64,000 bases of DNA, taken from a phage. The notes beneath the pieces were generated by a model that saw nothing but the letters and a program-made list of their open reading frames with translations, searched no databases and was not told the DNA's origin. Shown piece by piece: positions 35,575 to 61,622 of this stretch. The translations under genes were made by a program, and so were the position numbers. Every line of letters starts with the position of its first letter. Within the stretch, counting starts at the first letter, position 1. The DNA lies in sequence record NC_101835.1, one strand, 5' to 3'.

Positions 35575-35581
35575 ATCATAC

Positions 35582-37936: not shown

Positions 37937-37998
37937 TTTTCAGATCTCCTTATACAAAAATGCCCCACCCTTTCGGGCAGGGCTATGTCAGTTAGGTG

Positions 37999-38577
37999 CT
38001 AAAAGTATTCATAGAGGTATCCATCGGGAGCTGGAATTTTTTCATGAATGTAGTAACCAACATATATTCCGGTTTCTCTGCTGCAAGAGTTGTGGGATAC
38101 CCATTCTTTAAGAACGTTGCCATTCATGTCCAACCTCCTTACATTTTTGCACCGTCTACCGCTGGTGCTTCTATGTAACAGAATATCCTCTGTCTGCTTG
38201 TCTTTATTTTCTCCCCAAGTCGTTAAACGGATATTATCAAAAGAGTATCCTTTGAAATCGTCTATCCTGTCACAAGAAGGCTTTTTCCTTTTGTCGTATC
38301 CGCTGGCTACCCATTGGTCATACAACTCTTTGTAACCGTTTAGGTATAGCCACTCTTTAAACTCTTTTTTGGTGTAAGTCGGAGGAGGGTGACCTCTTTG
38401 CTTGCTGTTGCACTTTTGAGTCTTGTACAACACACGTATTACACCTTTTTCTGAAGAGTCTTTAGCAAATTGGTCAGCCTCCCTGCTGGCCTTCTTACAG
38501 CACTCTTTGCACGTTGATTTGTTGCTGGTGTAGAAGTCGGAGGCCTCCTTGTCCTCCCCACAACGTTTGCATTTCAT
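37999..38577 (-). CDS. zinc-ribbon plus HNH-like protein with substituted catalytic His
   Basis: N-terminal CKRCG...CKEC; CDRIDDFKGYSFDNIRLTTWGEN follows the HNH_3 pattern with H replaced by R. Confidence 0.35.
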   Translation of the reverse strand: MKCKRCGEDKEASDFYTSNKSTCKECCKKASREADQFAKDSSEKGVIRVLYKTQKCNSKQRGHPPPTYTKKEFKEWLYLNGYKELYDQWVASGYDKRKKPSCDRIDDFKGYSFDNIRLTTWGENKDKQTEDILLHRSTSGRRCKNVRRLDMNGNVLKEWVSHNSCSRETGIYVGYYIHEKIPAPDGYLYEYF

Positions 38578-38585
38578 AACTGACC

Positions 38586-39812
38586 TCAGAAAGGGATCGA
38601 GTCATCAAAGGCGTACTGTGCTGGATTCTGATCCATCGGGTCATCTTCCTCATCATTTACAGGAGGAGCGTCTACAGTGTTTTGCTGTGGAGCTGCTTCC
38701 TGTTTGGCAGCCTGAGGTTCTTGATGGTCAGTTGACCCAGCACCGTTCTTGATCCAATCGTACAACGGCTCAGCCAGATTAGTCAAGACATCTTTTGCTT
38801 CTGCAGTAATTGCCACTGCAAAATCATCAACTTTCGTTTTCTTGTCAATACGGCGACAAGCGTTCAACACCGCATTACCGACACTGGCACCTACTTCATC
38901 TTCAGTTCGGTTGGTGGCTTGAGCATACTCTTTCTTAAGCTCAATAGTGACTACGTGTAGTGTTTTAGCCACTCCTAATGGGTCGTCTACCTTAAACCCG
39001 CGATCCAGGATGATCTGCAACGCATTGATGCTATGCCCCGTTTCCACACCGATAGGGTCGTAAGAGGATTTACGCTTGCCACCGGAGCCTTGAGTGCCGT
39101 TCTCTGCCTTAGGAGGATAGGCCTTGAAACCACTGATAATGTTTCCAGTGTCTTTGTCAACAATGGCTGCAACACGACCACCTACCACCAGGTCTTTAAG
39201 CTGCTCATCAGTGACAACCATAGCACCTTCGCCAATCTTGTGGTCATTAACAGTAACCACGTTGCCAACAATCTGAGTCACATCACCATAGATGCGTAAA
39301 ACGTCCTGATTGGCATTCTGCTGAGGTTTCTGCTTCTGGCCTTGTGATTGTGCACCTTGTTGCTGTTTTTGCTGCTGAGTCGCTGCTGGAGCCTCTCCTG
39401 CACCCAGCTTGACCATCTTAGCCAGTGAGCCTTTGTAATAGGTCTTACCGTTATGCTCGTTTGCCTTCAAAGGGATATTTACGATCCATCCTGGCGTTAC
39501 GGTTTCCCACTTGTCATCAATTTTAACAGAGACAGAGTCTTGATGACCCGGTTTAAGCAACTTATCGCCCATACTGATCCAAACTTCTTCACCACCTTGA
39601 AGCAGGTTATCAGAGGAATCCAGTTCAGAAATCAGTAAAGAGATGGTGTGGCTGGATTCAATTTTCTTACCTTGCCACACAGTGGTTTTAATACCTGTTG
39701 TAGGATCAGCACCTTTGATAGGCTTGATGCTGACACGTTTAATCATGCCGTGAGCCAGTAAAACAGTTTCACGCGGATTCATCGGGTTAGCGAATTGTTG
39801 AATAACGCTCAT
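38586..39812 (-). CDS. putative ssDNA-binding protein with host-SSB-like C-terminal tip
   Basis: Gln-rich linker, acidic tail ending AFDDSIPF (cf. bacterial SSB DDDIPF); sits at the head of the replication module. Confidence 0.4.
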   Translation of the reverse strand: MSVIQQFANPMNPRETVLLAHGMIKRVSIKPIKGADPTTGIKTTVWQGKKIESSHTISLLISELDSSDNLLQGGEEVWISMGDKLLKPGHQDSVSVKIDDKWETVTPGWIVNIPLKANEHNGKTYYKGSLAKMVKLGAGEAPAATQQQKQQQGAQSQGQKQKPQQNANQDVLRIYGDVTQIVGNVVTVNDHKIGEGAMVVTDEQLKDLVVGGRVAAIVDKDTGNIISGFKAYPPKAENGTQGSGGKRKSSYDPIGVETGHSINALQIILDRGFKVDDPLGVAKTLHVVTIELKKEYAQATNRTEDEVGASVGNAVLNACRRIDKKTKVDDFAVAITAEAKDVLTNLAEPLYDWIKNGAGSTDHQEPQAAKQEAAPQQNTVDAPPVNDEEDDPMDQNPAQYAFDDSIPF

Positions 39813-40177
39813 TATTTGTCTCCTTGTTCTTCGTTAGTGTTTGCCGTGTGTGCAAACCCTGCTTGAATTAATTTGTCCTGAACTTGAGCCAACAGGCCCA
39901 TTGCAAAACTTGTAGTCCCAGAGAGGGCCATTAGCATATCTCGTTGTTGAGCTACCCAACCTAAGGCATAGTCCAAACGACGATATTTTTCTTCTTCACG
40001 CAGAGCCTGAAATAATTGTTCAGCCTCCGGTTGTTGTGTGAGCTCCTGAAGTCTTCCCATGAAAGAAGAAAGCACTAGCAGAAGAGACACTTGATCTTTA
40101 CTTAACCCTAAGAAAAATTCTTGAGGTTGTTCTTGCTCGTTCATCGCAACCGACGCTTGATCGTTCATTTGTTCCAT
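39812..40177 (-). CDS. hypothetical protein
   Basis: Track ORF. Confidence 0.5.
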   Translation of the reverse strand: MEQMNDQASVAMNEQEQPQEFFLGLSKDQVSLLLVLSSFMGRLQELTQQPEAEQLFQALREEEKYRRLDYALGWVAQQRDMLMALSGTTSFAMGLLAQVQDKLIQAGFAHTANTNEEQGDK

Positions 40178-40260
40178 TATGGAATCTCCGATTTTATTTG
40201 AACAACATAGAAGGAGACACTATTTTAGCATCCCCTTCTGTAAATTACAATAGGTATTTG

Positions 40261-40506
40261 TTAGCCAATCACTTCGAAAGTTCCCCAATTCCCGTCCAGC
40301 AGGCAGGTGATCGGATCTCCATCGTCGTCAAAGATTTCAAAGTTTTCAGCATCCAGGATGTGGCCCTCGAACACAATACTCTCGTCGCCACCACCAGAAA
40401 TAACAGCGTATTCCTTACCTTGAGTCAAGTTTTGACACCCTTTGCCACCAAAACCTACTTCCACACAACGTACTTTCTGTCCTGCGCGAGCAACTACTTC
40501 AGCCAT
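40261..40506 (-). CDS. hypothetical protein
   Basis: Track ORF. Confidence 0.5.
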   Translation of the reverse strand: MAEVVARAGQKVRCVEVGFGGKGCQNLTQGKEYAVISGGGDESIVFEGHILDAENFEIFDDDGDPITCLLDGNWGTFEVIG

Positions 40507-40523
40507 CTTAAGGTCTCCTGATA

Positions 40524-40844
40524 TTAATCGTCAAGTTCAAAATAGATTTTAACAGCTTCATCAAAGATTGGAATCCCGACGTTGTTGATAAGCTGCCAAA
40601 CTACCATATCTTTACCTGGATCTGGGAGAATGTCAACCTTTCTCCATGCGCTGTATATCCAGTTCGGACCACCTTCTGCACTAACTGGCAGATTTTCACC
40701 AGCTTCCTGTAGATACTTATACAGCAAAAGATATTCTGGATACTCTAGAACACTGTCCTCTGTAGTATATAGCAGTTCACGGTATACTTTTAAGAACCCT
40801 GCTGGGGTAATGTTTTCAGTCTTCATTTGCCGCTTCTCCTGCAT
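40524..40844 (-). CDS. hypothetical protein
   Basis: Track ORF. Confidence 0.5.
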   Translation of the reverse strand: MQEKRQMKTENITPAGFLKVYRELLYTTEDSVLEYPEYLLLYKYLQEAGENLPVSAEGGPNWIYSAWRKVDILPDPGKDMVVWQLINNVGIPIFDEAVKIYFELDD

Positions 40845-41205
40845 TCATCAGGTCTGCCATAGCGTCACCCACGAAGAGAACAACCACATCGTTGACAGCG
40901 TCAGCATCATCTTTGTTGACGTTGCTGAATTTAGGACACACAGCAATGATCATATAGACACCGTTACCAACCTGGACTGTCCGTGTGGTGCACATCATGG
41001 CGGTATTTGTGCCTTCTTTGAAGGCGAAGCCTTGAAGACGCTCCTCTAAAGTGTTACCGGTAGACTTCAGAAGCGCCAGCTCGTCCAAGGCATAGATGAT
41101 ATCTCCGGAAGTTAGTGTTGCCTTGCCATCAGACACCATAATCACTCCATCAGTACCGTCAAGCTTAGAGGCTTCAAAGATATCAATATCCCAAATATTT
41201 TTCAT
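40816..41205 (-). CDS. hypothetical acidic protein
   Basis: Track ORF. Confidence 0.5.
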   Translation of the reverse strand: MKNIWDIDIFEASKLDGTDGVIMVSDGKATLTSGDIIYALDELALLKSTGNTLEERLQGFAFKEGTNTAMMCTTRTVQVGNGVYMIIAVCPKFSNVNKDDADAVNDVVVLFVGDAMADLMNAGEAANED

Positions 41206-41537
41206 TACGCTTCCTCGTCGTCTAAGTAATCATCAAGAGAGGCGAAGATTTCACCGAAGTATTCTAAGATTTCTAGCTCACGTGTGGTGCAGCAAACATA
41301 ATCGCCTTGGTCGTCCTTAATAGTGGCCTCTTTACCCAGAATATCTACTTCAAGTTCATCGTTCAACAGGACGGCCCCTGTGTAAACTTTGTCAGCTGTG
41401 CAGTCCCGAAAAGCAGAGTCCTTCTCCAGATAGTCTGGCTTAACCTTGGCTTTAATTCGTTGGTATTGTTTGGTCATTGCTGTGGTCCCCTTTCGTTTTG
41501 ATAGGGCCATTATATTAGGCCCTATCACTGTTGTCAA
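41205..41537 (-). CDS. hypothetical protein (tandem paralog of 41541-41795)
   Basis: Shared KP(D/E)..A(F)(K/R)DCT...KDD(Q/E)GD..(C)T motifs. Confidence 0.5.
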   Translation of the reverse strand: MTTVIGPNIMALSKRKGTTAMTKQYQRIKAKVKPDYLEKDSAFRDCTADKVYTGAVLLNDELEVDILGKEATIKDDQGDYVCCTTRELEILEYFGEIFASLDDYLDDEEA

Positions 41538-41540
41538 GTA

Positions 41541-41795
41541 TTAATGTTCAGGTTTTACAAAAACGACTTCATTAACAGTGCACCAGACAGAGTCTCCTTC
41601 ATCATCTTTAAAGGTAAGGCACTGTGCTGAGTTTTCCAGCTCATCGATCTCTTCTTGTGATAAAGGGGCCCCTTCTTCCAGAAGGGCTTTTACCAGAGGG
41701 TTCTCACAAAACTCTGCTTCATAAATTGCACCGACTGTGCAATCTTTAAAAGCTCGGTCATTTGCAACGCATTCTGGCTTCAAAGTAATTTTCAT
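41541..41795 (-). CDS. hypothetical protein (tandem paralog)
   Basis: See 41205-41537. Confidence 0.5.
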   Translation of the reverse strand: MKITLKPECVANDRAFKDCTVGAIYEAEFCENPLVKALLEEGAPLSQEEIDELENSAQCLTFKDDEGDSVWCTVNEVVFVKPEH

Positions 41796-41871
41796 CTTGG
41801 CAGTCTCCTCAGTTATTTAAAAATCAACGCTCTGTTTGTGTGAAGCATCTTATATCTAATCTTACTTCTTG

Positions 41872-42270
41872 TCAATGGCTATTTTCAATCAGCCACACAG
41901 GGTCGAGGTAAATTTGTTGGCGTGTTGCCCAATGACAAACTTCATTGTACATCTGAATCTCTTTGTCTGTCAATTCACGAATAGGCTCATCTATACCCTC
42001 ATTTTTGTGGTAATCCCAGTCGGCATCGATTTCCCACAGCCATGACTTGTTGTCACCACGCTTACGCACACAGAAGTCACCAGGACGGCCTGCCAATGCA
42101 TTTAAGAACTCGTTCTCCGCTCGCTCTTGGAGAATACTAAGGAGCAAAACGTTAGAACATGACCGTAGAATATGCTTCAGCTCACAATCATCAATCTCAA
42201 CTTCAATACGTTGTTTGACTGTGTGGGTACCTTTTACTAACATCCTACCTCCTCTAAACGAACTCTGCAA
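41872..42270 (-). CDS. hypothetical protein
   Basis: Track ORF. Confidence 0.5.
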   Translation of the reverse strand: MQSSFRGGRMLVKGTHTVKQRIEVEIDDCELKHILRSCSNVLLLSILQERAENEFLNALAGRPGDFCVRKRGDNKSWLWEIDADWDYHKNEGIDEPIRELTDKEIQMYNEVCHWATRQQIYLDPVWLIENSH

Positions 42271-42448
42271 GGGTTGTGTTGTTCACTGCACCGCAGTAAA
42301 TGGAGTATCCCAGCCCATTAGAGTGCAGAAACCACGGCGTGCCGAAATTATCTTTCACGTAGACATCGCCGTTGCTTGTAAAGGGCCAATATTCTTCACC
42401 AAGGGTGAAATACCTACTCATACCCTCAGCCAGATACTTTACTTTCAT
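42254..42448 (-). CDS. small protein, G..W(F/Y)L family
   Basis: KDNFGTPWFLHSNGLGYSIYCGAV; related to the next two ORFs. Confidence 0.5.
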   Translation of the reverse strand: MKVKYLAEGMSRYFTLGEEYWPFTSNGDVYVKDNFGTPWFLHSNGLGYSIYCGAVNNTTLAEFV

Positions 42449-42672
42449 AGGCCCTCTTCAACAGCTACAAACTTGGCAAGCAGGGTGGTTCCGTAGATAT
42501 GATACTCACCGTTTGCCAGATGGGAGATAAACCAGGAAATCCCTTCCTCGTCTTTAATCATCTTGTTTGCACGATTTTTATCGTAATAAACCTCGTAGGT
42601 CTTTCCTTCTTTAAAGAATGACAGGTCTGTCATCTTTTCTTCTACAAAAGTAGCTTTAACCAAAGTTGTCAT
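42445..42672 (-). CDS. small protein, G..W(F/Y)L family
   Basis: KDEEGISWFISHLANGEYHIYG. Confidence 0.5.
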   Translation of the reverse strand: MTTLVKATFVEEKMTDLSFFKEGKTYEVYYDKNRANKMIKDEEGISWFISHLANGEYHIYGTTLLAKFVAVEEGL

Positions 42673-42986
42673 TGATCGGTCTCCTTCTTGTTAAGTCTGA
42701 ATACTGCAATAATAGCATTCCCAAGGTGCAGTGTCAAATCATTTCCAAGATACCACAACATTCCACGGTCATCTTTAATGAAAGGGTAACAATCTGGTGC
42801 CTTCCAGACATTGTACACTTTCCCAACCTGAAAGAAATCAGGCCCTGTTGGGATTTTGGTGCCAGGCCACACTTGGGATGCCTGAACACACTCCACCTGC
42901 ATAATAACAGGGATAGTCATAGATGTAAATGTTTTTGTTGGTTCTACTACCATAAAAGTCTCCTCTTTGCTCAACAACACTTCCAT
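42669..42986 (-). CDS. small protein, G..W(F/Y)L family
   Basis: KDDRGMLWYLGNDLTLHLGNAII; internal start MEVLLSKEE chosen to clear the polymerase exon. Confidence 0.45.
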   Translation of the reverse strand: MEVLLSKEETFMVVEPTKTFTSMTIPVIMQVECVQASQVWPGTKIPTGPDFFQVGKVYNVWKAPDCYPFIKDDRGMLWYLGNDLTLHLGNAIIAVFRLNKKETDQ

Positions 42987-43002
42987 GTGTTGATAGTTTA
43001 CA

Positions 43003-43356
43003 TTAGTGACAATCACCCCAATTACGACCACACAAGTATTCACCTGTGATCTGGAACGGGACTCCCATCATTTTAGAAGCTTGCCAGAAGCAATGTACCA
43101 CCATTTCGCCCACAGGACTCCAGATAAGTTCAAGCTTTCCGTCATCGTTCAAGATAGGATCGTACACCGTGTTTCCGTTTCTGTCAACCACTTCGTTTCC
43201 GTTTTCATCCTTGCGTGCCTTTTTGTACTTATGACCGTCGAACACATGAAGTTTGGCCTCCTGCTCTGCCTTAAATGCTTCCAATTCTTCAATTGTGTCG
43301 AAGGTGTACACAGTCTTATACTTAGGTGTGTCAGGGACCTGAAGTTGGTACTCATC
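43003..43356 (-). CDS. DNA polymerase A, exon 2 (motif C to C-terminus)
   Basis: Begins DEYQLQV (motif C acidic pair after splicing to ...YYH), ends GRNWGDCH as in T7/Pol I C-termini. Confidence 0.7.
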   Translation of the reverse strand, partial: DEYQLQVPDTPKYKTVYTFDTIEELEAFKAEQEAKLHVFDGHKYKKARKDENGNEVVDRNGNTVYDPILNDDGKLELIWSPVGEMVVHCFWQASKMMGVPFQITGEYLCGRNWGDCH

Positions 43357-43632
43357 CAATAGTTCAGGTAGGTCGTTAAGCTACCCCGCACCATTACGTG
43401 CATAGCCATACGTTTTCACGTAGGATCGGACCATCTCATATTCCTATGATAAGCAACCACAGGAATCCTCCCATTTCGACCGCACTTGCTGGTCTACTTC
43501 CTTTCGGAATGGCCTCTGAGCGTTCGCTCTTTTGAGCGCTTCGTTGCGGATTACCTTGCCATAAGGTTTAGGCTTCCCGCAGTTAAAGAGGTTATTCGAC
43601 ATAGATTACTCTATGAAGCCACAATGTTATTT
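43357..43632 (-). mobile_element. group I intron in DNA polymerase gene, no ORF
   Basis: Exon 1 ends on U after ...IIYYH, intron ends on G before DE; splicing rebuilds the YYH|DE motif; 276 nt. Confidence 0.6.
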
Positions 43633-46056
43633 ATGGTAATAAATAATACGACGAACACCTTCATCGTACCACCCACGCTTCACCATTTGGTGGTGCATAA
43701 GTATCCCAACCAAGTCACACAGCGATGCACCACCATTCTGTTGATATGCATTAAGTAAAGAGTGTTTAGATCGGGTCCAGATGGCATGACCATCAAAAGA
43801 GTAGATAAACTTCTTACCCGTTGCTTCCCAGAATTTCTCCAGATCCTCTTTACGGCCCTTAAGACCAGGGTTGGCATCCCAAAGCGCATCGATTACCCTT
43901 TGTCCCAACTCTGGAGAGATGTCCAGCATATCTGCAACTTTATCTTTTTGTGCCCCGTACATAACCCCATACGTGATAGGTTTACCGTCGTTACGGGACA
44001 CCTCTCTACCTGCTACTTTTGTATATGCCTCAGCATTGTTTTGGTGTGCGTCCCCGTTACTTACAACATCGTAATACAGGCCGTTGTCGAACTCAAAGGC
44101 ACCCCAAGCCCCGATAAGCTGCTCTAAGTTGGACCCGTCAATACCGATCTCAAAGTATCCCGGAGGAACACCCCACAGACTACGCATCTCTTTACCCATA
44201 ACCACTTTAGGAGATGGTTTAGGCATGTTTGCACAAATACTGTGTTTCTGTCTGGAAGTGTTTGTTAATCCAGAGCTTTTAGCAGGAAGCTTATGGTCAA
44301 TCTTCAAACGTGGGTGATTAAGAAGACCAGTGTCAACCTTATCCTCCTTGATTGGATCAAGTACCGATCTGCGGTTTCGCAATGATAACCATAAGACGAT
44401 ATCTTTAGCCATCTCTCCGTTCAATTTTTCAAGATTCGGACACAGGTGTCCAAACGTATCTTTCAGTTGCGGAGAAGTAATAAGTGCCCTAGCTTTTCTA
44501 CGTATTTTCCCGAATACTTCCTTTTTAATCCTTTCGGAGTTAGGAAAGCTTCGGAACTTGTGCACTGTTGTCTGAAACTTAGCATCAGTTTTGTTCCAGA
44601 AGTTGATAATTAGGTCACAATACTCTGACTCTAAAAGCTCGTCCATGTATGCATATACTCGTGCATCAACATCTGCATCAGGTAGAGCTTTCTTCTTGCT
44701 GTCTTTAGTTACATCCTTAGTTCTCCACATTGTCGGAAGCCAACCAGCACTGATCAGGTATCGCTTAATGTCGTCCTGATTGCTGATTTTCATAGGTATC
44801 TTGCAGTCAGGCATTCGCTTCTGCTGCAGATCGCTTATTGCCTGATCCATCAGCTCTTTAGGCAAAGGTTGTGGTGTGGAGGTGCCCTTAATATAACCTC
44901 TCAAGAAATCAGCCATCTTGTCGGGGTCTTTGCAGCCCATCTCTTCACACCATTTTATCCCCATCTTACTGACATCTCCTGTGGAGGTAAATGCTCTCTT
45001 AGGCGGGGCTTTGAACTCTAGAGCGCTCATGTCTACAGGATAGCCAAGCTTATCTTTTAACCATTTCCAACCATTATTAGAGATTGTCCCGTCTTGGTTA
45101 AACGGCTTTTCAGGGAACTTGGGCCGCTGAGACATTGACAGCTCTTTTAAAGGCAGTTGTGGTTCAACACGATCAGCGATTTCTTTCATCCACGCATCGC
45201 AACGGTCACGTAAAGCAATAGCTCCATCTATGTCGAAGTATACACCCTGACGGGCCTGCAGCTCCATCAGGAAGTGCTGCAGCATGCCTCGACGTAATGC
45301 GTTCTTCCAGGTGATCTTCTTGAACCCTTTCGGCTTCTCTTTGGCAGGATCGTACATAAAGTTCTGCATGTCAGATTTGCCGTAGAATACACCTTTTGAT
45401 TCCGCTACCAGTTCTTTCCAGAGCAGCTCCTGGATGATAACGTCCTCAAATACACGATCCACATACTTCCACAACGGAAGATCGCGCCAGTCATCAATTT
45501 GAACTTTCTGGTTACCAAGGGCATAGCCCCATGCCATAAGGCCGTGGGGACCAACAGGCTGCATTTTCTTAGTAACCGGGTTGAATACAGCGTCCGGACA
45601 ACCTTTTGGTAAAGGGCGATCAGGCCACAAGATTCGGCTCATCGCCAACGTATCAAACAGGTTAACCTGGTGGTCGTTGATAGTCCCCATGCATTTAGGA
45701 TCACGGAACATATCAAAATGAATACCGGATAATCTTTCCATCAGCATAAAGTCATAACTGTAGCAGTTATGGCAGTTCAAAGCTGTTGGTGACCAGTCGG
45801 AATTGCCTGTAAGCCAACCTTCCAACTCCGAAAAATCTGCTATGCGAACTTCAAAACCTTTATAAAGAGTTTTCTTTGCCAGAATGAAGTTCTTAGCCTT
45901 TTCTATATCCTCCTCGGAGTAGTGTGTGCGGTCATTTAGAGGAAGGAACAGCATAAAACGGTTCTTATTCAGCTCTTTAAACAGGCCGCAGTGATAATAA
46001 AGATCTGGATCTTCCAAAAGCCCTGAGGCCTCCAGATCGAAGCACCAATTACTCAT
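43633..46056 (-). CDS. DNA polymerase A, exon 1 (3'-5' exonuclease and polymerase motifs A/B)
   Basis: Exo I FDLEASGL; motif B RNDGKPITYGVMYGAQ; upstream of motif C colinear with T7 gp5. Confidence 0.8.
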
Positions 46057-46787
46057 ACTGTCTCCTCCTGTGTCTTCTCAGCATTCTTTCTTGCAGCTAT
46101 TGCATCGTCCCTGTTCTTGAAATACCCAAGGCATTTCCTTTTACCATCTACATAAATTCTGGCTACCCATCTTTCATGGGTTTTATCCCAATTCACCCCT
46201 GAGCAACCGCTGGTGTTATTATACTGCACGGCTCTTCCACTCTTGTGCGAAAAACCATTATCTTCGAAGAACTTTCTTGCCCACTCTGCCTCTTCAAAAG
46301 TTCTGTACTGGCCTAGCCAGACCCTTTCACCTACAGAGTCTGTGCCTTGAGCTACCCATGCCCCTCTTTCTTCAGAATAGTGCACCCCGACCCTGCCAGA
46401 TTTGTTGTTGCTACGAGGTATCTTGCAACTTTTCTTTTTGTTATCTGTAGGTTCGAGTAGTTGCAAATTTTGAATACTGTTGTCAGCCACACCACCTGTT
46501 TCCCTTATCTCCTTGATGTGGTCAACCTCATACCCTTCCGGTACAGGACCGTTAAACATTTCCCAGATTATAACGTGGGCACCTTTAGTGCAATGCTTTC
46601 CTAGACTAACCACAGGCCTGCCATCAGCATCTTGCCCCTTGTCAGCTCTGGAGCCTGCTGAAGTTTTAACATATCCTACACCGCTGCCTGCCAGAATGTC
46701 TATCTTCCAAAAAAGATTTTGACCGTCATACTCCAATATTTCTGACCACAAGTGATTAGCTACACAGTGATCTCTGAACTCGTTCAT
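46053..46787 (-). CDS. HNH-AP2 homing endonuclease (free-standing)
   Basis: HNH motif HVIIWEMF...EVDHIKEIRETGGVADNSIQNLQLL; two AP2-like repeats (GVHYSEERGAWVAQ, GVNWDKTHERWVARI). Confidence 0.75.
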   Translation of the reverse strand: MNEFRDHCVANHLWSEILEYDGQNLFWKIDILAGSGVGYVKTSAGSRADKGQDADGRPVVSLGKHCTKGAHVIIWEMFNGPVPEGYEVDHIKEIRETGGVADNSIQNLQLLEPTDNKKKSCKIPRSNNKSGRVGVHYSEERGAWVAQGTDSVGERVWLGQYRTFEEAEWARKFFEDNGFSHKSGRAVQYNNTSGCSGVNWDKTHERWVARIYVDGKRKCLGYFKNRDDAIAARKNAEKTQEETV

Positions 46788-46845
46788 AAAGTGTTCTCCT
46801 TAAAGGGGAGGCGGTTGTACTACCCCTCCCACTCTTTGTTAAACA

Positions 46846-48924
46846 TTAAAAAGGCGTTTCATCATCCTCAAAACCAGGGACCGGGTCAGAGGATGGATCA
46901 TCGTACTGGAGGTCTTCCTGCGTGTCAACAGGCTTAACAGTAGGAGTTACAACCTTATCAGCCACAACCTTGCCCATAGGTGTTTCTACAACTGCATGCT
47001 CCTGATCCTCAAACATAGCCTGAGGTCTCCAAACAACCTCCCCACCTTCTCCGTCTGTAAACATTTGCATTTCTTTGTCCCAGTACCAATTACTGGCATC
47101 ATGGAACTTACCTGTATGTGGGTCCATAACTAAAGTGTCAGCAATACCTAAAGTTTTTGCTGGACGGTTTTTAAGACCTACCAGACGGACACGCCCACGA
47201 GAACGATCCACCATTTCTTCGGCCTCGACACCTATGACTACCCAACTCAACTGTTCAAGCCCAGCCGATCCTCGCAAATTCTCTTTTCGCACAGGATACC
47301 AGAAAGGTAATGGGTTACCATCCTTGTCCTTAGGGGGCACAATCTCTGTACGTTTGAGGTGAGCGATCACCAAGATAAACACGTTAAACTGCTTACAAAA
47401 CGCAGCCAGCTGAGTCATAGCCATGTCCAGTTCTTTTCGCTCATCTTTAACATTAAGCCCTGAAATTACCATAGACAGGTGATCCAGCACAATATAGCGA
47501 CAATGGTACAGGCAGACCATTTGCTTAAGCTTGGTAATCAACTCGTCCACTGGAATAGACCCGAAATGTTTGAACACTTTGATTTTTCCAGCTTTTGCCC
47601 ATGATTGGTGAATCTCTGCATGTTCTTGATCAGTTAAAAACTGGCTAGGATCTTCAACAAACTCTTTAACATCAAACCCTAACTGGTTTGCATACAAGGA
47701 GTTAATTGCTTCCTCTGGGTCCTCCTCAAGATGAATCATGCATAGACGATCATCCTCTTCGTAGTCATCGGCCTTTGGACATGTCGGGTCCATTAGGTAT
47801 CTTGCAATACAGTGTTCCAGTTTTTTGGCTACAGTTGTTTTACCACCTCCTGATGGACCTGTAAGCATTACGAGTGTCCCTTTGTGCAAGCCTTTTAGCA
47901 TTTTTTGCAGTTTTGGAAACTCTGCGCTGATATCTACCCCGTTGGAAGTCTTTTTCCGCAAAGATTCGATAGAGAAGTCTTCTAAATCCGACACAGCATC
48001 AGGCACATACTTAACAGGATGCCGGAACATGTTTACAATATCTTCCAGCTTTTTAGCCTTCAGCATGTCACGGATATCTTTTACACCATCAGGGTCGTTT
48101 ACCTCGCCAGGATATTCCACGTGGTAAACGTTGTCAGCCATCAAAAATGCTGCAATATTATGTGTGGCTTCAACACCTTTGATAACGTGTTTTTGCTTCT
48201 CTACCTCGTTAGCCGCATCGTTGTCCATTGCAAGGACCACTGTTCCGTAGCTACGGATAAATTTCTCATTGTTTGCAAAAGTATCTACTGCGTTTGCACA
48301 TCCACAGTTAATTCCAACAAAAGGTAGGCAGGGTTTTCCTGCCAGATCACCCCCGTTGATAACTGCATCGATCCCGTCCTGGACCTCTTTAGCCCACTGT
48401 TTCACCTTTGCCGGGGCTTTAGCGTTGGTGAGAATCCCTTTTACTTGTATCTGATATGCAGCCTGCCATGCTGCAATAACATCACCTTCCCCCTCACAAA
48501 CGTTAATCTGCTTACGGTTGTTAGAAGATGCACACAGCTTTTGCCCAAACATTTGGGAGTTAGCCTTTACGATCCCAACCGTCGTAAAGTGCCCACGTTG
48601 CTCTTTGGGGATCGTCCAGTCACGCTTTTTGAAACCGGACAGATTCCCGTAGCGGTCGTAATATGGGAAATATGTTGCAGTAACTGTCACACCGTCTTCT
48701 TGGGACAATGCTGATCGCACACCAAAATATTGTGCAGCCATCAGACCGATATTTTGTTGTGGGACAGGGACGATTTTAGTATTTTCTAAAACAGTCTCTA
48801 CAGTTTCAACTTCTTTTTCATCACGATAGTCTCGTTTCACACTTCCCCCACTTTTATACTTAGTTGCTTTCGGGTTTGGCTCACCGAAACGGTTGTATGC
48901 AGATGCCATAAATTTACTTCCCAT
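46846..48924 (-). CDS. primase-helicase (TOPRIM primase fused to DnaB-like helicase)
   Basis: TOPRIM VCEGEGD; Walker A GPSGGGKT; acidic C-terminal tail ...FEDDETPF. Confidence 0.8.
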   Translation of the reverse strand: MGSKFMASAYNRFGEPNPKATKYKSGGSVKRDYRDEKEVETVETVLENTKIVPVPQQNIGLMAAQYFGVRSALSQEDGVTVTATYFPYYDRYGNLSGFKKRDWTIPKEQRGHFTTVGIVKANSQMFGQKLCASSNNRKQINVCEGEGDVIAAWQAAYQIQVKGILTNAKAPAKVKQWAKEVQDGIDAVINGGDLAGKPCLPFVGINCGCANAVDTFANNEKFIRSYGTVVLAMDNDAANEVEKQKHVIKGVEATHNIAAFLMADNVYHVEYPGEVNDPDGVKDIRDMLKAKKLEDIVNMFRHPVKYVPDAVSDLEDFSIESLRKKTSNGVDISAEFPKLQKMLKGLHKGTLVMLTGPSGGGKTTVAKKLEHCIARYLMDPTCPKADDYEEDDRLCMIHLEEDPEEAINSLYANQLGFDVKEFVEDPSQFLTDQEHAEIHQSWAKAGKIKVFKHFGSIPVDELITKLKQMVCLYHCRYIVLDHLSMVISGLNVKDERKELDMAMTQLAAFCKQFNVFILVIAHLKRTEIVPPKDKDGNPLPFWYPVRKENLRGSAGLEQLSWVVIGVEAEEMVDRSRGRVRLVGLKNRPAKTLGIADTLVMDPHTGKFHDASNWYWDKEMQMFTDGEGGEVVWRPQAMFEDQEHAVVETPMGKVVADKVVTPTVKPVDTQEDLQYDDPSSDPVPGFEDDETPF

Positions 48925-49708
48925 TAATTCTGCTCCTTACTACAGGCTCGTTTGCTAAGAATACGGCTTTTGCCCAGCCACGTGGTGTGAGGCTTCGGAT
49001 CATCTTCGTTCTTGCACTCTTTCCACCCAGCTTGGCGTGTTGCATGGAATACCCGCTAACCGCGTCAACTATTTGCGGGACAGGTTTTGTGGCCGGGATT
49101 ATAAATCCATTACCTATCCAGCCGCAAGTTATTTTTGGATAGGCATCACGTGGAGCTATAAATTCAGGAAACCAAGGGTTTACATCATCCTCCGGTAAAT
49201 ACCCTCCATAGTCAGAAGGATGAAAACGGTAATCAGGTTTGCGCCACAGTGTGGACATAACACCAACAGGATTCTCTACATGCCACGGGCAATCGTAAAT
49301 CTCTCCCAGCTCTTCCGCAACCCGAGCATCCTTTACAGCATTAATTTGGATCATGGGGTCCTTAGCCAGCTTTTTCTTAAAATGTGCAGCACCTGATACC
49401 GCTAAATGCGTGCACGGAGGAAATGCAAGAATAAAGTCTGGGGCTGGGTACATGCAAAAAGTTTCCTGAGGGAACCATGGGTCAATCCAATAATCCACAT
49501 AGTGGATGTTGGGATGATCGGTTATCACCTCTGCATAACTGCCGTGATCAGCACCTTCTGCATTGAAGCATAGGCACAGGTACCCAGCTTTTGCCCAGTC
49601 AATGACTGCACCACCAGACCCGTCAAATAGACTCCACACAACACCTTTGTGGTAGTGTTCTTTGTAGATAAATTTCAATTTGCTGTCTCCTAATGCAAAA
49701 AGCCCCAC
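48914..49708 (-). CDS. DNA cytosine-C5 methyltransferase-like protein
   Basis: Motif I LFDGSGG, motif IV-like AFPPCTHLAVSG, motif VI HVENPVG. Confidence 0.55.
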   Translation of the reverse strand: MGLFALGDSKLKFIYKEHYHKGVVWSLFDGSGGAVIDWAKAGYLCLCFNAEGADHGSYAEVITDHPNIHYVDYWIDPWFPQETFCMYPAPDFILAFPPCTHLAVSGAAHFKKKLAKDPMIQINAVKDARVAEELGEIYDCPWHVENPVGVMSTLWRKPDYRFHPSDYGGYLPEDDVNPWFPEFIAPRDAYPKITCGWIGNGFIIPATKPVPQIVDAVSGYSMQHAKLGGKSARTKMIRSLTPRGWAKAVFLANEPVVRSRINGK

Positions 49709-49729
49709 CCTTTCGGGCAGGGCCTAGTG

Positions 49730-50212: not shown

Positions 50213-50224
50213 ACCACCCTCTCC

Positions 50225-50620: not shown

Positions 50621-50922
50621 CAGAAACCTCCCACTTCTTCAGCAAATGCAGCTGCTGTCGTCGCTGCATCCAGATAGGACTCTAGTTCACGGGCTGCACG
50701 TTTGTAAATTGAGTGGCGCATATCGTTTGGCAGTTGGTGGAAGTCCACCTCTTCACCGTTGTGGTAAACACGCACATCGGTAATTTGTCTAAATCCGTAA
50801 TAGTCAACATCAGAGTCACGGCACTCCGAGTCTGGCAGCTGGACAACTGCTTGAGCTTCCACAGTAAACATATCGTCAAGTTCGAAATCGATTTCAAAAG
50901 TGTATGGTTTATAACGTTTCAT
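50620..50922 (-). CDS. hypothetical protein
   Basis: Track ORF. Confidence 0.5.
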   Translation of the reverse strand: MKRYKPYTFEIDFELDDMFTVEAQAVVQLPDSECRDSDVDYYGFRQITDVRVYHNGEEVDFHQLPNDMRHSIYKRAARELESYLDAATTAAAFAEEVGGF

Positions 50923-50982
50923 CGTTTAGTGCTTCCTTAGTTTTTGTGGGGAGGAGTGCCTCCCCTTTAGACTAACATCTTA

Positions 50983-51324
50983 CTACTGAAGGTCTTCAGA
51001 GTCAAGCTCAAAAAGAATCAAACTGTGCATGCCTGCAGAGAGATCAACGCACCCTGCAATAATAAGGGTCTGATAGTAAGGTTCAGCACCATCAATGTCT
51101 TCGTTAAAATCTACAACAAGATAGTCACCTTTGTTAAAGGTGTATTTGTCCGATGTAAACGCAAAACCTACCCAGTCCCCTACTGCAGGATCTTTATCAG
51201 TCACCTTTGTTAGCAGTAGATCTTTTTCACGAGATCTTTTAGTAAAATCGTGAATCACAACATCCTTCTCTTCAGGAGTTGGATTGCCGCACACGTAGTT
51301 AACTATATTTCTCCACAAACTCAT
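50983..51324 (-). CDS. hypothetical protein
   Basis: Track ORF. Confidence 0.5.
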   Translation of the reverse strand: MSLWRNIVNYVCGNPTPEEKDVVIHDFTKRSREKDLLLTKVTDKDPAVGDWVGFAFTSDKYTFNKGDYLVVDFNEDIDGAEPYYQTLIIAGCVDLSAGMHSLILFELDSEDLQ

Positions 51325-52691
51325 ACGTCCCCCTCTTCGGCTCTGGTTTCAAAATCTTTCCTGACAATTTTGTCTAAGTCAGGGAATGTTGTATTGTAAA
51401 ACTCTACGACTCGCGGGTCAACAATAATGTCAACTTCTCTTAGTGGACGCAACAAGTTTATTCCTTGTATTGTCTTAACTCGACTCAAAGCAACATACGT
51501 CATCCCCGGAGAGAAAGCTCCGTTCTTTCCAAGGTCTAGGTTGTAACAATCTAGCGTAAGTCCTTGACTTTTATGAGATGTTACGGCGTACCCAGATTTC
51601 AGAGGAAGTTGCTTGTATGACCCAATCACTACCCTCTCTATAAACTTCTCCATCTTCCTTTCTGCAATATTGTATCTCTGAGAGGGCTTATACTCGTTAT
51701 TCTCCCACAACCTCTGCTCTATGTCAACCTGTGTTCCATCTTCAAGCTCTACCACCACCGCCTTGTTCTTAAATTTAACAATTGTGGCACGTGTTCCGTT
51801 AACATAATAAGGTACTTTGTGCGTCGGGTCAACATCGTTGGCGGTTATCATAACTTTCATGCCAATTTTCAACTTCATCTCCTGCTCAACTGGCAGGGTG
51901 GAGGGAAACTTACCCTTCATTTCACCAGTGTATACCTTCTCTGGGGCGTTGATGGCATCATAGAACCTTCTGTTTACTTCCTCTGCTTGTTTGTTGGTGG
52001 CGCAAATTGTGAGAGCATCTGTTGGTACACCACCTTTGTAACAGCGAGCATTAAGTTCTGCTACAACCTCTTTTATGCGACGACCCTCACGAACACAGTT
52101 GAGCATTGTGGCAAATCGAATAGACTCCTGTCGGAACTGATCTATTAGGGCTATGTTGTGGAGGTCAAGCTCTTTCCAAGATTCGGTATAGCAACACAGG
52201 TCCGTATGGTAGAAGTTGAAGTAGGCTTCCTTCTCCATAGAAGAGACAACAGGAGGTGCCTGGTAAAAATCGCCAAACAATATGACCTGTATGCCCCCGA
52301 AAGGTTTGTCATTTTTTCGAAGGAAGCGGAGTTTCCTATCCATCTCTATAAACTTATCAGCACGAATCATAGAGATTTCATCGATAATTAGGATGGTAAA
52401 TGCCTTGCTTTTCAAAGGCTTTGCTGTTTTTGCCCTTATTGCGGTCCAGTCCGACTCCATGCTCACACCTGCTGCAAGATCGAAGGTTCGGTGTGCTGTT
52501 GCTCCATTAACGTTTAAAGCGGCTACCCCTGTCGGGGCAACCGTTATGCAAGAGTCTCCATACATTGACTGGATCATGTTGATGAGGTACGTCTTCCCAC
52601 AACCTGCGGGTCCTGAAACGAAGACATTCTCACCGCTCATGATTGCAACGAGGGCAGCATCTGTGCCTACATCATACTGCCCTTTTTCCAT
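51321..52691 (-). CDS. SF1 DNA helicase (Dda/RecD/PIF1-like)
   Basis: Walker A GPAGCGKT, Walker B ILIIDEISM, C-terminal VTSHKSQG.T...ALSRV. Confidence 0.8.
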   Translation of the reverse strand: MEKGQYDVGTDAALVAIMSGENVFVSGPAGCGKTYLINMIQSMYGDSCITVAPTGVAALNVNGATAHRTFDLAAGVSMESDWTAIRAKTAKPLKSKAFTILIIDEISMIRADKFIEMDRKLRFLRKNDKPFGGIQVILFGDFYQAPPVVSSMEKEAYFNFYHTDLCCYTESWKELDLHNIALIDQFRQESIRFATMLNCVREGRRIKEVVAELNARCYKGGVPTDALTICATNKQAEEVNRRFYDAINAPEKVYTGEMKGKFPSTLPVEQEMKLKIGMKVMITANDVDPTHKVPYYVNGTRATIVKFKNKAVVVELEDGTQVDIEQRLWENNEYKPSQRYNIAERKMEKFIERVVIGSYKQLPLKSGYAVTSHKSQGLTLDCYNLDLGKNGAFSPGMTYVALSRVKTIQGINLLRPLREVDIIVDPRVVEFYNTTFPDLDKIVRKDFETRAEEGDV

Positions 52692-53896
52692 TACGCCTCC
52701 TCGTAAAGAATGTCGATAGTATTACCGTCACGATCAACTACATATTCAATAGGGTCTCCATCTTTGCGTGCTTCCGGAGCTACCACAATCTCATAGCGGC
52801 ATGCACGGCACTTAGCGCTATTGTGTTGGTATGGCACACTAACCACATCTGCAGGATCAACCATAACAGTCATTACAGTGCCGTAGCTCTTTGCATACTC
52901 TTTGCTGGCGCAGTGTAAGCCATAGGAGCACGCAGCTTCCGGATCATCCTCTACAAAGTTACGAGGCATGGATACAAAAGCACCCTGGTATTGTGGAACT
53001 TTACCACTGTGCCAATCCACCCACTTGCTGCCGTTAAACTGAACCCCTTTGTAGCAAATGATTCGACCATCTTCTGCAATCTGGATATCGTTGGCCTGCA
53101 TAAAATCGTAGAGCATGTTTACAGATTTTGCAGAAGGATTGCGTAGCAGGCGAACGAGGAATTTCACATAGCGGTCATCCAGCGTTCCGTCTGCATAATC
53201 TTTCTCAATTTTCTTTGCAATGGTGGATCGCATCTCTACACCGTAGTAGTAGAGCTTACCATCTTTCATGATCAGGTTGTCTGCAAGTGTGGTGAACTCA
53301 TTCTTGCGTTCCAGCCAGACAAGGATTTCACCAATTGCCTCATCATATTCCTGAACAGAGATATGGTCGAAGACTTTCTGGTAAACTTCCTCACTTTCGC
53401 TGCGGCGAATTTCAAAAATGCCTTCGTTGCAGGTGATCTGGAGGAGTTCACCACAAATAACTACCAAAGGCTCGATGCTTCGAGTCTGTTGCTGAGACAC
53501 ACTGCTCACCACCTCCAGCACCGGGTCTTTGACTTCTACTAAAGGTTCTTCTGACTTGATTGCCACCCCAGTGAACCCCACACCGTGAACAACACACAGT
53601 GGGTATACCACGCCCCAACGTTTAACGGAACCTTCGCCTAAGTCTAAGATCATGGCGTACTTACCATTATCTTCCAGCCCATATCGAAATAGACGGGCCT
53701 CTTCACGGGTTTCAAAATCCTCACGGGTGTAGCAGACGCTGTCACGGTCAGGATCGAACAATTCTGGGGCACCCACTGCCAGTGTCCAGGTTGTGTCACC
53801 TTTCTCAATGGCACATGTGAAACCCTTCTTCTCAAGTTCTGCACGGCGGTCGCGTGCTTCTTTACGAGTTTTGAAATGTTCGTAGATGAAAATCAT
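52691..53896 (-). CDS. hypothetical protein (possibly rIIB-like, speculative)
   Basis: Immediately downstream of and coupled to the GHKL protein; no motif recognised. Confidence 0.3.
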   Translation of the reverse strand: MIFIYEHFKTRKEARDRRAELEKKGFTCAIEKGDTTWTLAVGAPELFDPDRDSVCYTREDFETREEARLFRYGLEDNGKYAMILDLGEGSVKRWGVVYPLCVVHGVGFTGVAIKSEEPLVEVKDPVLEVVSSVSQQQTRSIEPLVVICGELLQITCNEGIFEIRRSESEEVYQKVFDHISVQEYDEAIGEILVWLERKNEFTTLADNLIMKDGKLYYYGVEMRSTIAKKIEKDYADGTLDDRYVKFLVRLLRNPSAKSVNMLYDFMQANDIQIAEDGRIICYKGVQFNGSKWVDWHSGKVPQYQGAFVSMPRNFVEDDPEAACSYGLHCASKEYAKSYGTVMTVMVDPADVVSVPYQHNSAKCRACRYEIVVAPEARKDGDPIEYVVDRDGNTIDILYEEA

Positions 53897-53906
53897 CTTG
53901 GTCTCC

Positions 53907-56386: not shown

Positions 56387-56434
56387 AATAACTCCAAATA
56401 GAAAATCCCCGCCGAAGCGGGGTGGTATTAGAAA

Positions 56435-56815: not shown

Positions 56816-56824
56816 ACAACCTCC

Positions 56825-58311: not shown

Positions 58312-58317
58312 TACCTG

Positions 58318-58698: not shown

Positions 58699-58700
58699 TA

Positions 58701-59606: not shown

Positions 59607-60502
59607 ACCCTCGCATAAATTAAACTTGTATCAGTATACTTCTTTAATGGGTAAATATCCTGTCCATAGATGCAATCATTAAACACCTCATCTACCCAAA
59701 GGCTACACTTATATCCCATCATTTCTAAAACACCCATCTCTTCTTCGGTAAACTTATCACCGCTCTTGCAAGATGTCAATACCTCATTCTGAACTCTTGC
59801 TACCTCGAAGCGGTTATTGGCAATATCGCTATTGGCGATCAAATACTCACCTAGAGGGTGTGCGGCATTAAAGATGCACAGTGGACGGCTGACGTAATAG
59901 TCTCCGGGTGTATAAAAATTGTTGAGGTCTTTCACTAGAACATTCTTATCAGTCACTTCATTTATAACATCATGCATATCGCACATCTTTATATGTTTGA
60001 GGATTCCATCCCCCATCACAAAATAAAAACTTGCTGAGACACTTTCGGCATAGATCTTACTAGATCCGTTGTAGTTGTATTTTACTCGGATGCTAACGGG
60101 GGTTTTTCCTGTCGCGTTAGCCATCATCCAAAGAAATGGCAGCTCATACTTCTCCTCTGAGGAAACAAAAGGTGAGGTAGCCAGAGATCGAAAACCTCCA
60201 GAGAAGTTGAAAGTTACAGAACCGCTCCGGCGGTATGATACCGCGTATTCTACTTTTATATCGACATACCCATTGGAATAGGTGTGTCCTTCATTATCTA
60301 AATATGTCCACTTATCAGACCCAGATACCAATCTACGCTCAATAACCTTCATCACTATAGGAATTAATGGGTTGGTACAAACCGCTTTTGAAGTAGCTTT
60401 ATCATCTAAAGCCTCGTAAATTGCAGAAAGGATGTCTCCAGCTGAAAGATTGGTTGTTATATCCTGTTGCCACCGCGTACTAAAACTGTTAAGATTTGCC
60501 AT
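59603..60502 (-). CDS. hypothetical protein (299 aa)
   Basis: First gene of the leftward operon that ends with the MoxR ATPase. Confidence 0.55.
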   Translation of the reverse strand: MANLNSFSTRWQQDITTNLSAGDILSAIYEALDDKATSKAVCTNPLIPIVMKVIERRLVSGSDKWTYLDNEGHTYSNGYVDIKVEYAVSYRRSGSVTFNFSGGFRSLATSPFVSSEEKYELPFLWMMANATGKTPVSIRVKYNYNGSSKIYAESVSASFYFVMGDGILKHIKMCDMHDVINEVTDKNVLVKDLNNFYTPGDYYVSRPLCIFNAAHPLGEYLIANSDIANNRFEVARVQNEVLTSCKSGDKFTEEEMGVLEMMGYKCSLWVDEVFNDCIYGQDIYPLKKYTDTSLIYARV

Positions 60503-60584
60503 GAGTGAGTGCTCCTATGTTAGTTTTCTTTCGAATGGGTGCACTATATCGGAGATTTAGAGTAAAGTCAACACGTTTTTGATG

Positions 60585-60625
60585 TTGACATCTGTTGAGA
60601 CAATTGATAAGATTTCTTCACTTAC
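60585..60625 (+). promoter_or_regulatory. promoter with palindromic operator-like site
   Basis: TCAACA-N9-TGTTGA inverted repeat overlapping TTGACA-17-TAAGAT. Confidence 0.4.
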
Positions 60626-60644
60626 AGAGCACGAGAGACAACTC

Positions 60645-61622
60645 ATGAATCTTGAAAAATATTATACACCAGAAGAGTTAGAGCGCCTGCTCAAAAAATA
60701 TAGACGCAAACAGAATAATGCACGGAAACGAGATATAGAGTTCGACCTGTCGTGGGAAGAATACCTACTATTTGGTAAAAAACTTTTAGGGGAAGGGGTA
60801 TGCGACTACACCCTTATACCTTTCGACATGCACACAGATGAAAACGGACTGGGAAATCCTTTCTATCCATCTCTGGAGCGGATAGATGATGAAGGTCCTT
60901 ACGCAATTGATAATTGTTGTGTGGTAGGGTTGAGGTGCAACGCTCTGAAGGACTGTCTGGTAGATAAAAAGACTGCAATATTGATAAAAGACAAAACTGA
61001 TCGAAAAATTGTCCAGCAGATGATGCTCCACCTGAGCGAAGAGCGTATGGAGAAATTGAAAGGTGATTATACTTTCGAAGATTTCATCTTGCAATACGGG
61101 ACAGAAGAAGATAAACTAGCACTTTTTGACGAAGAGGAAGAAGATATGTCACCAATGCAGGACTTTAAAAATTTCATGGCTGATCGTGCAGCCAACAAAC
61201 ACATTTCAGATATCGTAAACGAAACTGTGACAGAAGAAATTGAAGAACAGAACTCTGAAGAGGAAAAAGAGCCTCAGGAGGTCGAAGAGGAGATTGCAGA
61301 AGAGGTTCCTGCACTGCCTGATGATGTTGAGGTTGCTAAGGCTTACACTTTCTATTGTCAAACGTTCTACGATGCAGGTATGAAAGTTGATCTGTCGTTC
61401 AGCCAATTTAAGAGTTCATATATTCGCAAATGCTGTGCTTTAACTGGTGAACGTCTCGGAGCTGGACTTAAACCGCTGTTGGTGACCGACTGGAATAAAG
61501 GTTTCACTAAAGGAAACTTTATGGTAGTATCTCCAATTATGGAAAAAGCCATGACAGATCTTATGAAGACCACTCGCATGACAATGACTGAGTTGGCAGG
61601 TATTTTCAAACACGTTAAATAA
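60645..61622 (+). CDS. endonuclease VII/HNH-like His-Me finger domain protein, acidic C-terminal half
   Basis: SLERIDDEGPYAIDNCCVVGLRCNALK resembles the endo VII core with His positions substituted; start placed downstream of the promoter. Confidence 0.4.
   Translation: MNLEKYYTPEELERLLKKYRRKQNNARKRDIEFDLSWEEYLLFGKKLLGEGVCDYTLIPFDMHTDENGLGNPFYPSLERIDDEGPYAIDNCCVVGLRCNALKDCLVDKKTAILIKDKTDRKIVQQMMLHLSEERMEKLKGDYTFEDFILQYGTEEDKLALFDEEEEDMSPMQDFKNFMADRAANKHISDIVNETVTEEIEEQNSEEEKEPQEVEEEIAEEVPALPDDVEVAKAYTFYCQTFYDAGMKVDLSFSQFKSSYIRKCCALTGERLGAGLKPLLVTDWNKGFTKGNFMVVSPIMEKAMTDLMKTTRMTMTELAGIFKHVK

Follow-up and report, generated by a model that had tools for sequence, protein, structure and literature searches.

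Two PacI-like His-Me finger proteins of an rV5-like phage: an apparently mobile cassette gene and a homolog of T4 Srd

The restriction endonuclease PacI is an active enzyme (PMC5714182, PMC4081073) of the His-Me finger superfamily in which the catalytic His is absent; a loop Tyr has been proposed to take its place (PMC5714182, PMC4081073, PMC3384342), and the single metal ion is held by one Asp and one Asn (PMC5714182, PMC4081073). Group 20 of the superfamily is defined by PacI and has mostly viral members, some of them from giant viruses (Jablonska et al. 2017, PMC5714182); PacI is the only member with a solved structure. Dead His-Me fingers have also been described, in groups 16 and 21, which have neither the His nor the substitute Tyr (PMC5714182). 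Here we analyze two proteins of this superfamily encoded in a 64,000-nucleotide stretch of phage DNA (sequence record NC_101835.1; referred to below as the window). Gene A (37999..38577, minus strand) is an open reading frame (ORF) for a PacI-like His-Me finger protein of 192 amino acids (aa). Gene B (60645..61622, plus strand) encodes a 325-aa Srd-like protein, counted from its ATG, and is the ortholog of rV5 gp11, which the rV5 genome paper has already named a probable Srd homolog (PMC3606486). The Srd of phage T4 is described as a protein that binds the N-terminal half of RNase E and speeds up the decay of host mRNA (Qi et al. 2015, through passages of PMC13232886 and PMC4980113 that cite it).

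Both proteins carry an Arg where the catalytic His of an HNH nuclease is expected, and the original prediction was that they may be domesticated, DNA-binding versions of homing endonucleases. We find instead that the Arg belongs to a conserved PacI-type set of residues. The joint reading that we hold to be fairly probable is that A is an active PacI-type homing endonuclease and that B is an Srd-type host-takeover protein with one intact PacI-like domain. Each protein belongs to a group that is already known, the PacI-like His-Me fingers and, for B, the Srd family.

PacI-type residues in A and B

The window is a segment of a Vequintavirus (an rV5-like E. coli myovirus), with 97%–99.9% identity to many phage records. 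The ORF calls confirm the two motif-bearing ORFs that had been picked out by eye, A being on the minus strand, and the motif is found in only these two among 734 six-frame ORFs of the window. In gene A it is CDRIDDFKGYSFDNIRLTTWGEN, residues 102–124 (38206..38274, minus strand). The gene B motif, SLERIDDEGPYAIDNCCVVGLRCNALK, spans residues 76–102 (60870–60950) and lies in an N-terminal PacI-like domain of residues 1–125 (60645..61019, plus strand). Canonical HNH_3 proteins have a "DHID" motif with the catalytic His. The corresponding letters here are DRID in A and ERID in B, so that the general-base His position is occupied by R104 and R79, respectively, each aligned to PacI R93. The "R/D" reported earlier for the His position holds as far as the Arg is concerned; the D is a conserved Asp two residues further on, which canonical HNH_3 proteins have as well. 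A Tyr aligned to PacI Y100 is present in both proteins (Y111 in A, Y86 in B). By alignment to PacI, putative roles in A are metal ligand for D103, substitute for the His for Y111, a structural role for N115, and metal ligand for N124. The putative metal ligands of B are E78, a Glu and not an Asp, and N99, and the intact constellation of its N-terminal domain consists of E78, R79, D81, Y86, N90, N99, and K102.

These residues are strongly conserved. All 50 A-family sequences, which go down to 34% identity, have D103, R104, Y111, and N124, and at least 90% of the family has C3, C6, C23, and C26. In the B family no sequence departs from C53, R79, Y86, N90, or K102, and at least 90% have E78 and N99. 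An exhaustive search with the B N-terminal domain recovered 406 cluster representatives (50% identity) at E ≤ 1e-3, and we counted residues in 193 domains aligned from the best 150 matches of that search. At the His position (79, in B numbering), Arg is found in 163 of the 193, Lys in 13, and His in none. The loop Tyr (position 86) is kept in 170, the first Asn (position 90) in 185, and the second Asn (position 99) in 166, and the acidic position 78 is Asp in 101 and Glu in 64. The full constellation is kept in 158/193 of these related domains. The Arg at the His position appears to be a fixed ancestral feature of the clade and not a product of decay. Hence, the step from a missing His to a dead protein is unsupported, since the PacI-like clade is constitutively without the His and PacI is active.

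Standard nuclease models do not recognize these proteins. No match to the Pfam models HNH, HNH_3, or Endonuclease_7 is seen in A, in B, or in any of 99 aligned relatives. For HNH_3 (PF13392), neither A nor its 50 relatives match at E ≤ 0.1; for Endonuclease_7 (PF02945), the D-H-D-H motif and the Cys4 zinc site are also missing from the sequences. NCBIfam and PADLOC scans returned nothing relevant. In PHROGs, A belongs to phrog_1035 ("endonuclease VII"; 6e-33) and B to phrog_3118 ("HNH endonuclease"; 7e-111); B also matches the T4 Srd families 4592 and 1400 and cross-matches the family of A. The A and B family profiles are homologous over about 81 columns (residues 45–130 of A and 13–105 of B; hhalign 95.5%, E 1.5e-8). 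Similarity to HNH and endonuclease VII families, proposed as a check on the original prediction, is therefore absent from Pfam and present in PHROGs, in the profile–profile comparison, and in structure; these last three also bear out the assignment of both proteins to the His-Me finger (HNH/endonuclease VII) superfamily and their kinship with proteins of the homing endonuclease type.

The link to PacI itself comes from several directions. The best match of the 50-sequence A-family profile among PDB sequences is PacI (E 0.0012), with PacI residues 91–117, VDRSDSFEGYSPQNARLACFICNRIKS, aligned to the family motif in that same search. Gene A also has an N-terminal CxxC...CxxC zinc ribbon (residues 3–26; 38500..38571, minus strand), recognized by its conservation and by its alignment to the N-terminal CPRC...CKGC of PacI. 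Profiles of the B family give only chance-level matches to PDB sequences (e.g., PH1500 and NAP1L1), so it is structure, together with homology to family A, that links B to PacI. AlphaFold models of both proteins are confident, with a predicted local distance difference test score (pLDDT) of 93.9 for A and 87.1 for B, and PacI is the top structural match for each. The gene A model has strands at residues 100–104 and 116–120 followed by a helix at 121–134, and both A and B show the beta-beta-alpha-metal fold of the PacI-like clade. The gene B model also matches "HNH" proteins of giant viruses (Pandoravirus, Medusavirus, and Pithovirus), which fits membership of the PacI group as that group has been described (PMC5714182). 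Fold, homology, and residue conservation together place A and B in the PacI-like His-Me finger clade (group 20).

Gene A and its insertion site

Gene A is patchily distributed among close relatives. Its DNA is found in 51 phage records, compared to 117 for its flanks, and genomes with and without it occur inside one species (SYGMH1 versus FV3). The region that takes up 3,001 nucleotides (nt) in the window is 2,414 nt long in empty alleles. Aligned pairwise with the window, the FFH2 and Murica empty alleles delimit a cassette of ~597 nt (38005..38601) that replaces ~10 nt of the empty allele, in which the sequence around the insertion point reads ...GGGCTATGTTAACTAGATGTTAAAACGGTATGTCATCATC.... 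The cassette contains gene A, a short leader, and a recoded version of the final five codons, with the stop, of the 408-aa gene next to it (38586..39812, minus strand, by ORF call), whose stop codon is the insertion point. A junction alignment of thirteen alleles, six with the cassette and seven without, puts the insertion at the same point in all six carriers; the polymorphism is one of presence or absence at a single precise site. The 408-aa protein ends in DDSIPF* with a new TGA stop in the window and in phage nom and in DDDIPF* in the empty alleles, and in rV5-type carriers the gene extends 15 codons into the cassette. Only three of 369 polymorphic flank sites segregate with gene A (37991, 37992, and 37996), all within 14 nt of the junction. 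Both the recoded gene end and these three fixed substitutions in carriers are compatible with disruption of a target site.

The setting of the gene is equally specific. An intrinsic terminator lies directly 3′ of gene A (37962..37983, minus strand; a 9-bp stem with seven GC pairs and a T-run in the terminator scan). It is common to alleles with and without gene A and stands 3′ of the 408-aa gene in the empty ones, so that gene A is located between the 408-aa gene and that gene's terminator, and has no promoter of its own. The gene is under strong purifying selection (ratio of nonsynonymous to synonymous substitution rates, dN/dS, of 0.02–0.14). In a profile search, the DNA-binding tail of I-HmuI aligns with the last third of the gene A protein, which delimits a predicted NUMOD/I-HmuI-like DNA-binding tail at residues ~143–192 (38002..38151, minus strand), and among its relatives 19/50 match Pfam I-HmuI_NUMOD-like and 16/50 match NUMOD1.

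Because it combines a patchy distribution, an identical insertion site, a recoded gene end, purifying selection, and a NUMOD/I-HmuI tail, gene A most likely encodes a free-standing homing endonuclease that is active through a PacI-type site. Such an enzyme would cut relatives without gene A close to the stop codon of the 408-aa gene, after which recombinational repair would copy the cassette in. The recoded gene end that it brings would at once restore the host gene and destroy the target site. A dead, domesticated DNA-binder, as the original prediction had it, is hard to reconcile with invariant PacI-type residues in a mobile cassette under purifying selection; as far as sequence data allow, A looks like a nuclease that is active despite the substitution.

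Two versions of the gene A N-terminus are seen, one of 192 aa (the window and phage nom) and one of 207 aa (rV5, JEP1, SYGMH1, and 12A). The window type (38500–38577) has a shorter zinc-ribbon loop, without roughly "KMSDGHLN", and a different 5′ junction, which suggests a secondary rearrangement at the upstream end of the cassette. The 408-aa protein has a long, Q-rich, low-complexity center.

Gene B, a conserved relative of T4 Srd

Gene B is present in 116/118 related records. Its similarity to T4 Srd (NP_049634) is detectable by BLASTP (E 5e-7 over 143 aa, identity ~24%), T4 Srd scores 54.9 bits against the profile of the B N-terminal domain, and Srd matches PHROG 3118 at 1.5e-16 over its residues 4–158, the PHROG matches being reciprocal. 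T4 Srd carries the same constellation, SLERFDNNVGYIKGNVIAVKKKYN. A description of Srd as a PacI-like His-Me finger or HNH protein was not found in the literature searched.

Beyond the N-terminal domain, gene B has an acidic linker (residues ~165–222; 61137..61310, plus strand) and a C-terminal domain (residues 223–325; 61311..61619, plus strand). The linker is predicted to be disordered and is poorly conserved: pLDDT falls below 50 for residues 183–206, means of 10-residue blocks are 42–64 over residues 161–220, and its alignment columns are variable and gap-rich. The C-terminal domain, which is confidently folded in the model, is a degenerate internal duplicate of the N-terminal one (hhalign 97.8%, E 6.8e-13). 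It keeps C264, D282, and N291 (the equivalents of C53, D81, and N90), whereas the positions that correspond to E78, R79, Y86, and N99 are unconstrained. Since this domain folds without them, those four residues are unnecessary for the fold, and their fixation in the N-terminal domain points to selection for function. In 42 two-domain relatives, exactly one copy is intact in 27 and both are intact in 13.

A sigma-70-type promoter (60585..60613, plus strand; TTGACA-17 nt-TAAGAT with an extended −10 TG, 10/12 matches in the promoter scan) is predicted just upstream of the gene. This promoter argues for the ATG at 60645 as the true start. A 347-aa version that starts at a TTG is likewise open, and many database records place the start ~21 codons upstream (346–347 aa; 4583–5623 in one relative). 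A long start in this region (60579–60644) would put the start codon within the predicted promoter or upstream of it, and the long start is therefore probably a misannotation.

B is a conserved, nonmobile gene that is probably expressed early, from the predicted sigma-70 promoter. By homology to Srd, it would most likely act in host takeover, through a link to RNase E if that property of Srd extends to B. The invariant PacI-type residues of its first domain would probably contact or cut nucleic acid, and the pair of one intact and one degenerate domain resembles a fused pseudo-dimer of the PacI homodimer. Of the idea that B is domesticated, what stands is that it is a conserved, nonmobile Srd homolog with a degenerate second copy; its first copy keeps the full PacI constellation, and nothing shows it to be a DNA-binder.

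Directly 3′ of gene B, at 61635–63116 (plus strand), is a gene for a 493-aa protein annotated as a metallopeptidase in relatives; beyond a divergent promoter, relatives have annotations for a "putative alpha 1-3 fucosyltransferase" and MoxR-type ATPases. Several of the closest matches to the window (99.9% identity around gene B) are "Campylobacter phage" records. Sixteen such GenBank records (MG065646–MG065690) match the window and group with Escherichia vequintaviruses, and their host labels look doubtful. One of them, A112b (MG065682.1), bears an UNVERIFIED flag and is assigned to Vequintavirus FFH2. It has no gene A, and its identity to the window is mosaic, 99.9% near gene B and 82%–98% around gene A. 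Comparison over 33500–53000 of the window shows strong mosaicism, with an especially divergent block at ~43568–46032 (81.7%).

Alternative readings and known systems

Several points weigh against the joint reading of A as a homing endonuclease and B as an Srd-type takeover protein. The role of the PacI Tyr is itself a structural proposal, and reviews differ on whether it acts as a general base or as a nucleophile. The metal-ligand roles in A and B are carried over from PacI by alignment, and the activity of both proteins is inferred from sequence. Gene A is without the second Cys4 site of PacI and gene B without both: A has the N-terminal CxxC...CxxC only, with no Cys pair around the finger, and the Cys residues of B (the invariant C53, plus C91, C92, and C98) form no Cys4 pattern. 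Two Cys4 zinc sites may, however, be a feature of PacI's own and not one that defines the wider clade. For gene A, a co-conversion tract longer than ~15 nt is not detectable in the 13 alleles, and repeated loss or ordinary recombination could be another source of its polymorphism. For gene B, the homology to Srd covers the N-terminal half only (Srd 4–158), and a profile search finds no counterpart of the B C-terminal domain in T4 Srd. As it would depend on which part of Srd contacts RNase E, the transfer of function to B is uncertain.

The alternative that survives best concerns gene B, which may be an active single-site nuclease or nickase acting on host DNA or RNA early in infection, its dead C-terminal domain being only the second half of a pseudo-dimer. 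The N-terminal domain shows little or no variation at E78, R79, Y86, N90, and N99 from rV5-like phages to T4 Srd, the matching positions are free to vary in the C-terminal domain even though it is folded, exactly one intact copy is the commonest state of two-domain relatives, and the promoter upstream is strong and of an early type. Set against this, the metal ligand is Glu where PacI has Asp, and both zinc sites of PacI are missing. An early nuclease of broad specificity would also need to leave phage DNA intact, and no means of protecting it is apparent; the passages on T4 Srd in PMC13232886 and PMC4980113 mention no nuclease activity. We regard this as possible, if rather improbable. A wider version, which we offer as tentatively, is that catalytic competence extends to the Srd family as a whole, T4 Srd and rV5 gp11 (gene B) among them, all being nucleases or nickases of the PacI type that depend on the Tyr. 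Cleavage or binding of nucleic acid by these proteins themselves would then lie behind host shutoff early in infection, in place of sigma mimicry and passive activation of RNase E or in addition to them, and the pairing of a live with a dead domain would be a fused pseudo-dimer that has turned a double-strand cutter into a single-site enzyme.

Both proteins could alternatively be catalytically dead His-Me fingers, domesticated as sequence-specific DNA-binders, as happened to the HNH nuclease from which the SMAD MH1 domain descends. The canonical His is indeed missing in A and in B, no Pfam nuclease model matches either, gene B is conserved and nonmobile with a clearly degenerate C-terminal domain, and dead groups (16 and 21) do exist (PMC5714182). 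Those dead groups, however, are without both the His and the Tyr (PMC5714182), whereas the present proteins have an invariant Tyr, acidic residue, and Asn, and PacI, with the same motif, is an active enzyme. The patchy occurrence of A at one precise site suits a selfish nuclease better than a domesticated regulator, and it is the C-terminal domain of B that shows a pattern of relaxed selection, not the N-terminal one. We consider this reading unlikely for A, plausible only in part for B, and unlikely for the two together.

It is more doubtful still that A is an active PacI-like nuclease that does not home. It would then be a restriction-like or exclusion nuclease directed at host DNA or rival phages, its patchiness reflecting the gain and loss of an accessory gene. 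PacI is after all a restriction enzyme, viral members of group 20 have been suggested to be "viral restrictases" (PMC5714182), the cassette shows no long co-conversion tract around it, and the whole region is mosaic among relatives. This would leave aside the identical position in six carriers at a host-gene stop codon with a recoded gene end, the placement between a gene and its terminator without a promoter of its own, and the build of the protein, a small one with the NUMOD/I-HmuI-type tail typical of homing endonucleases. Finally, a role for gene B as an anti-sigma factor or a sigma-70/sigma-S decoy, given in many database records, by the T4 Srd label "postulated decoy of sigma factors RpoD and RpoS" that PHROGs 1400 and 4592 and many relatives also bear, and by the rV5 paper, which repeats the postulate (PMC3606486), is very improbable and was rejected on fold grounds, neither the structure nor the sequence of gene B resembling sigma-70 family regions.

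Some annotations follow from this analysis as candidates for correction. The label "endonuclease VII" on A is a misnomer (some relatives have "homing endonuclease"), and "anti-sigma factor" on B is an untested postulate copied between records, where "HNH endonuclease" and "anti-termination" are also in use. More generally, a missing HNH histidine should not be read as lost activity, as a large viral clade (the 406 representatives above) is built on the PacI-type Arg/Tyr site. If A cuts, it would be the first characterized homing endonuclease with a PacI-type Tyr active site, adding a new catalytic variant to the HNH homing class and a compact new scaffold for DNA targeting. The nuclease-type active site in B and T4 Srd provides a testable handle on how Srd stimulates host mRNA decay. 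Of possible specialist interest are the fusion of a PacI-type active site to an I-HmuI-type tail in a mobile phage cassette and the identification of the conserved domain of T4 Srd as a nuclease fold of the PacI kind whose catalytic constellation is intact.

Among known systems, T4 endonuclease VII (gp49) belongs to the same superfamily as A and has given its name to many database records of A. By eye, the helix-then-beta-beta-alpha layout and the B lead-in "RKRxIEFxLtxEeY...C" resemble the pattern of the Endonuclease_7 family. Unlike endonuclease VII, A and B do not match Endonuclease_7 and lack both the D-H-D-H motif and a Cys4 site around the finger, and nothing suggests a junction-resolving activity in either. 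T4 Srd is homologous, over residues ~4–158, to the N-terminal domain of B and the helical region that follows it, but has no counterpart of the acidic linker or the degenerate C-terminal domain.

I-HmuI and other phage homing endonucleases of the HNH_3 plus NUMOD type, free-standing or intron-encoded, share with A the arrangement of a small beta-beta-alpha-metal nuclease head followed by an extended NUMOD/I-HmuI-like DNA-binding tail, and A resembles phage homing endonucleases in being patchy among near-identical phage genomes. It is only this C-terminal NUMOD-like tail, however, that A shares with the HNH_3/I-HmuI family. In contrast to canonical HNH_3 proteins, A has D-R-I-D and a loop that is one residue shorter and contains the Tyr, and it gives no HNH_3 match. 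The window also holds a canonical I-HmuI-type homing endonuclease of 183 aa (1492–2043, plus strand) that matches phrog_59 ("HNH endonuclease") at 2e-33, with sub-threshold Pfam matches to HNH_3 and I-HmuI_NUMOD-like. Its His is kept (VKHKGDNRKDNSVYNLEW), so the genome contains HNH genes of both the His type and the PacI/Tyr type, with similar tails.

The key known relative is PacI (PDB 3LDY/3M7K), a type II restriction enzyme from bacteria, which is 142 aa long, forms a homodimer, carries two Cys4 zinc sites per subunit, and recognizes an 8-bp palindrome. Sequence identity between PacI and A or B is only 14%–23%. All three nevertheless have the same beta-beta-alpha-metal core and share the motif [D/E]-R-x-D...G/P-Y...N...N-x-x-K, in which Arg takes the His position and the Tyr is in the loop, and PacI and A have in common the N-terminal CxxC...CxxC zinc ribbon. 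From this shared core the two phage proteins depart in different ways. Unlike PacI, A combines a single zinc site with an I-HmuI-like tail and behaves as a mobile cassette, and B, without a Cys4 site, is a fused two-domain protein in which one copy has degenerated.

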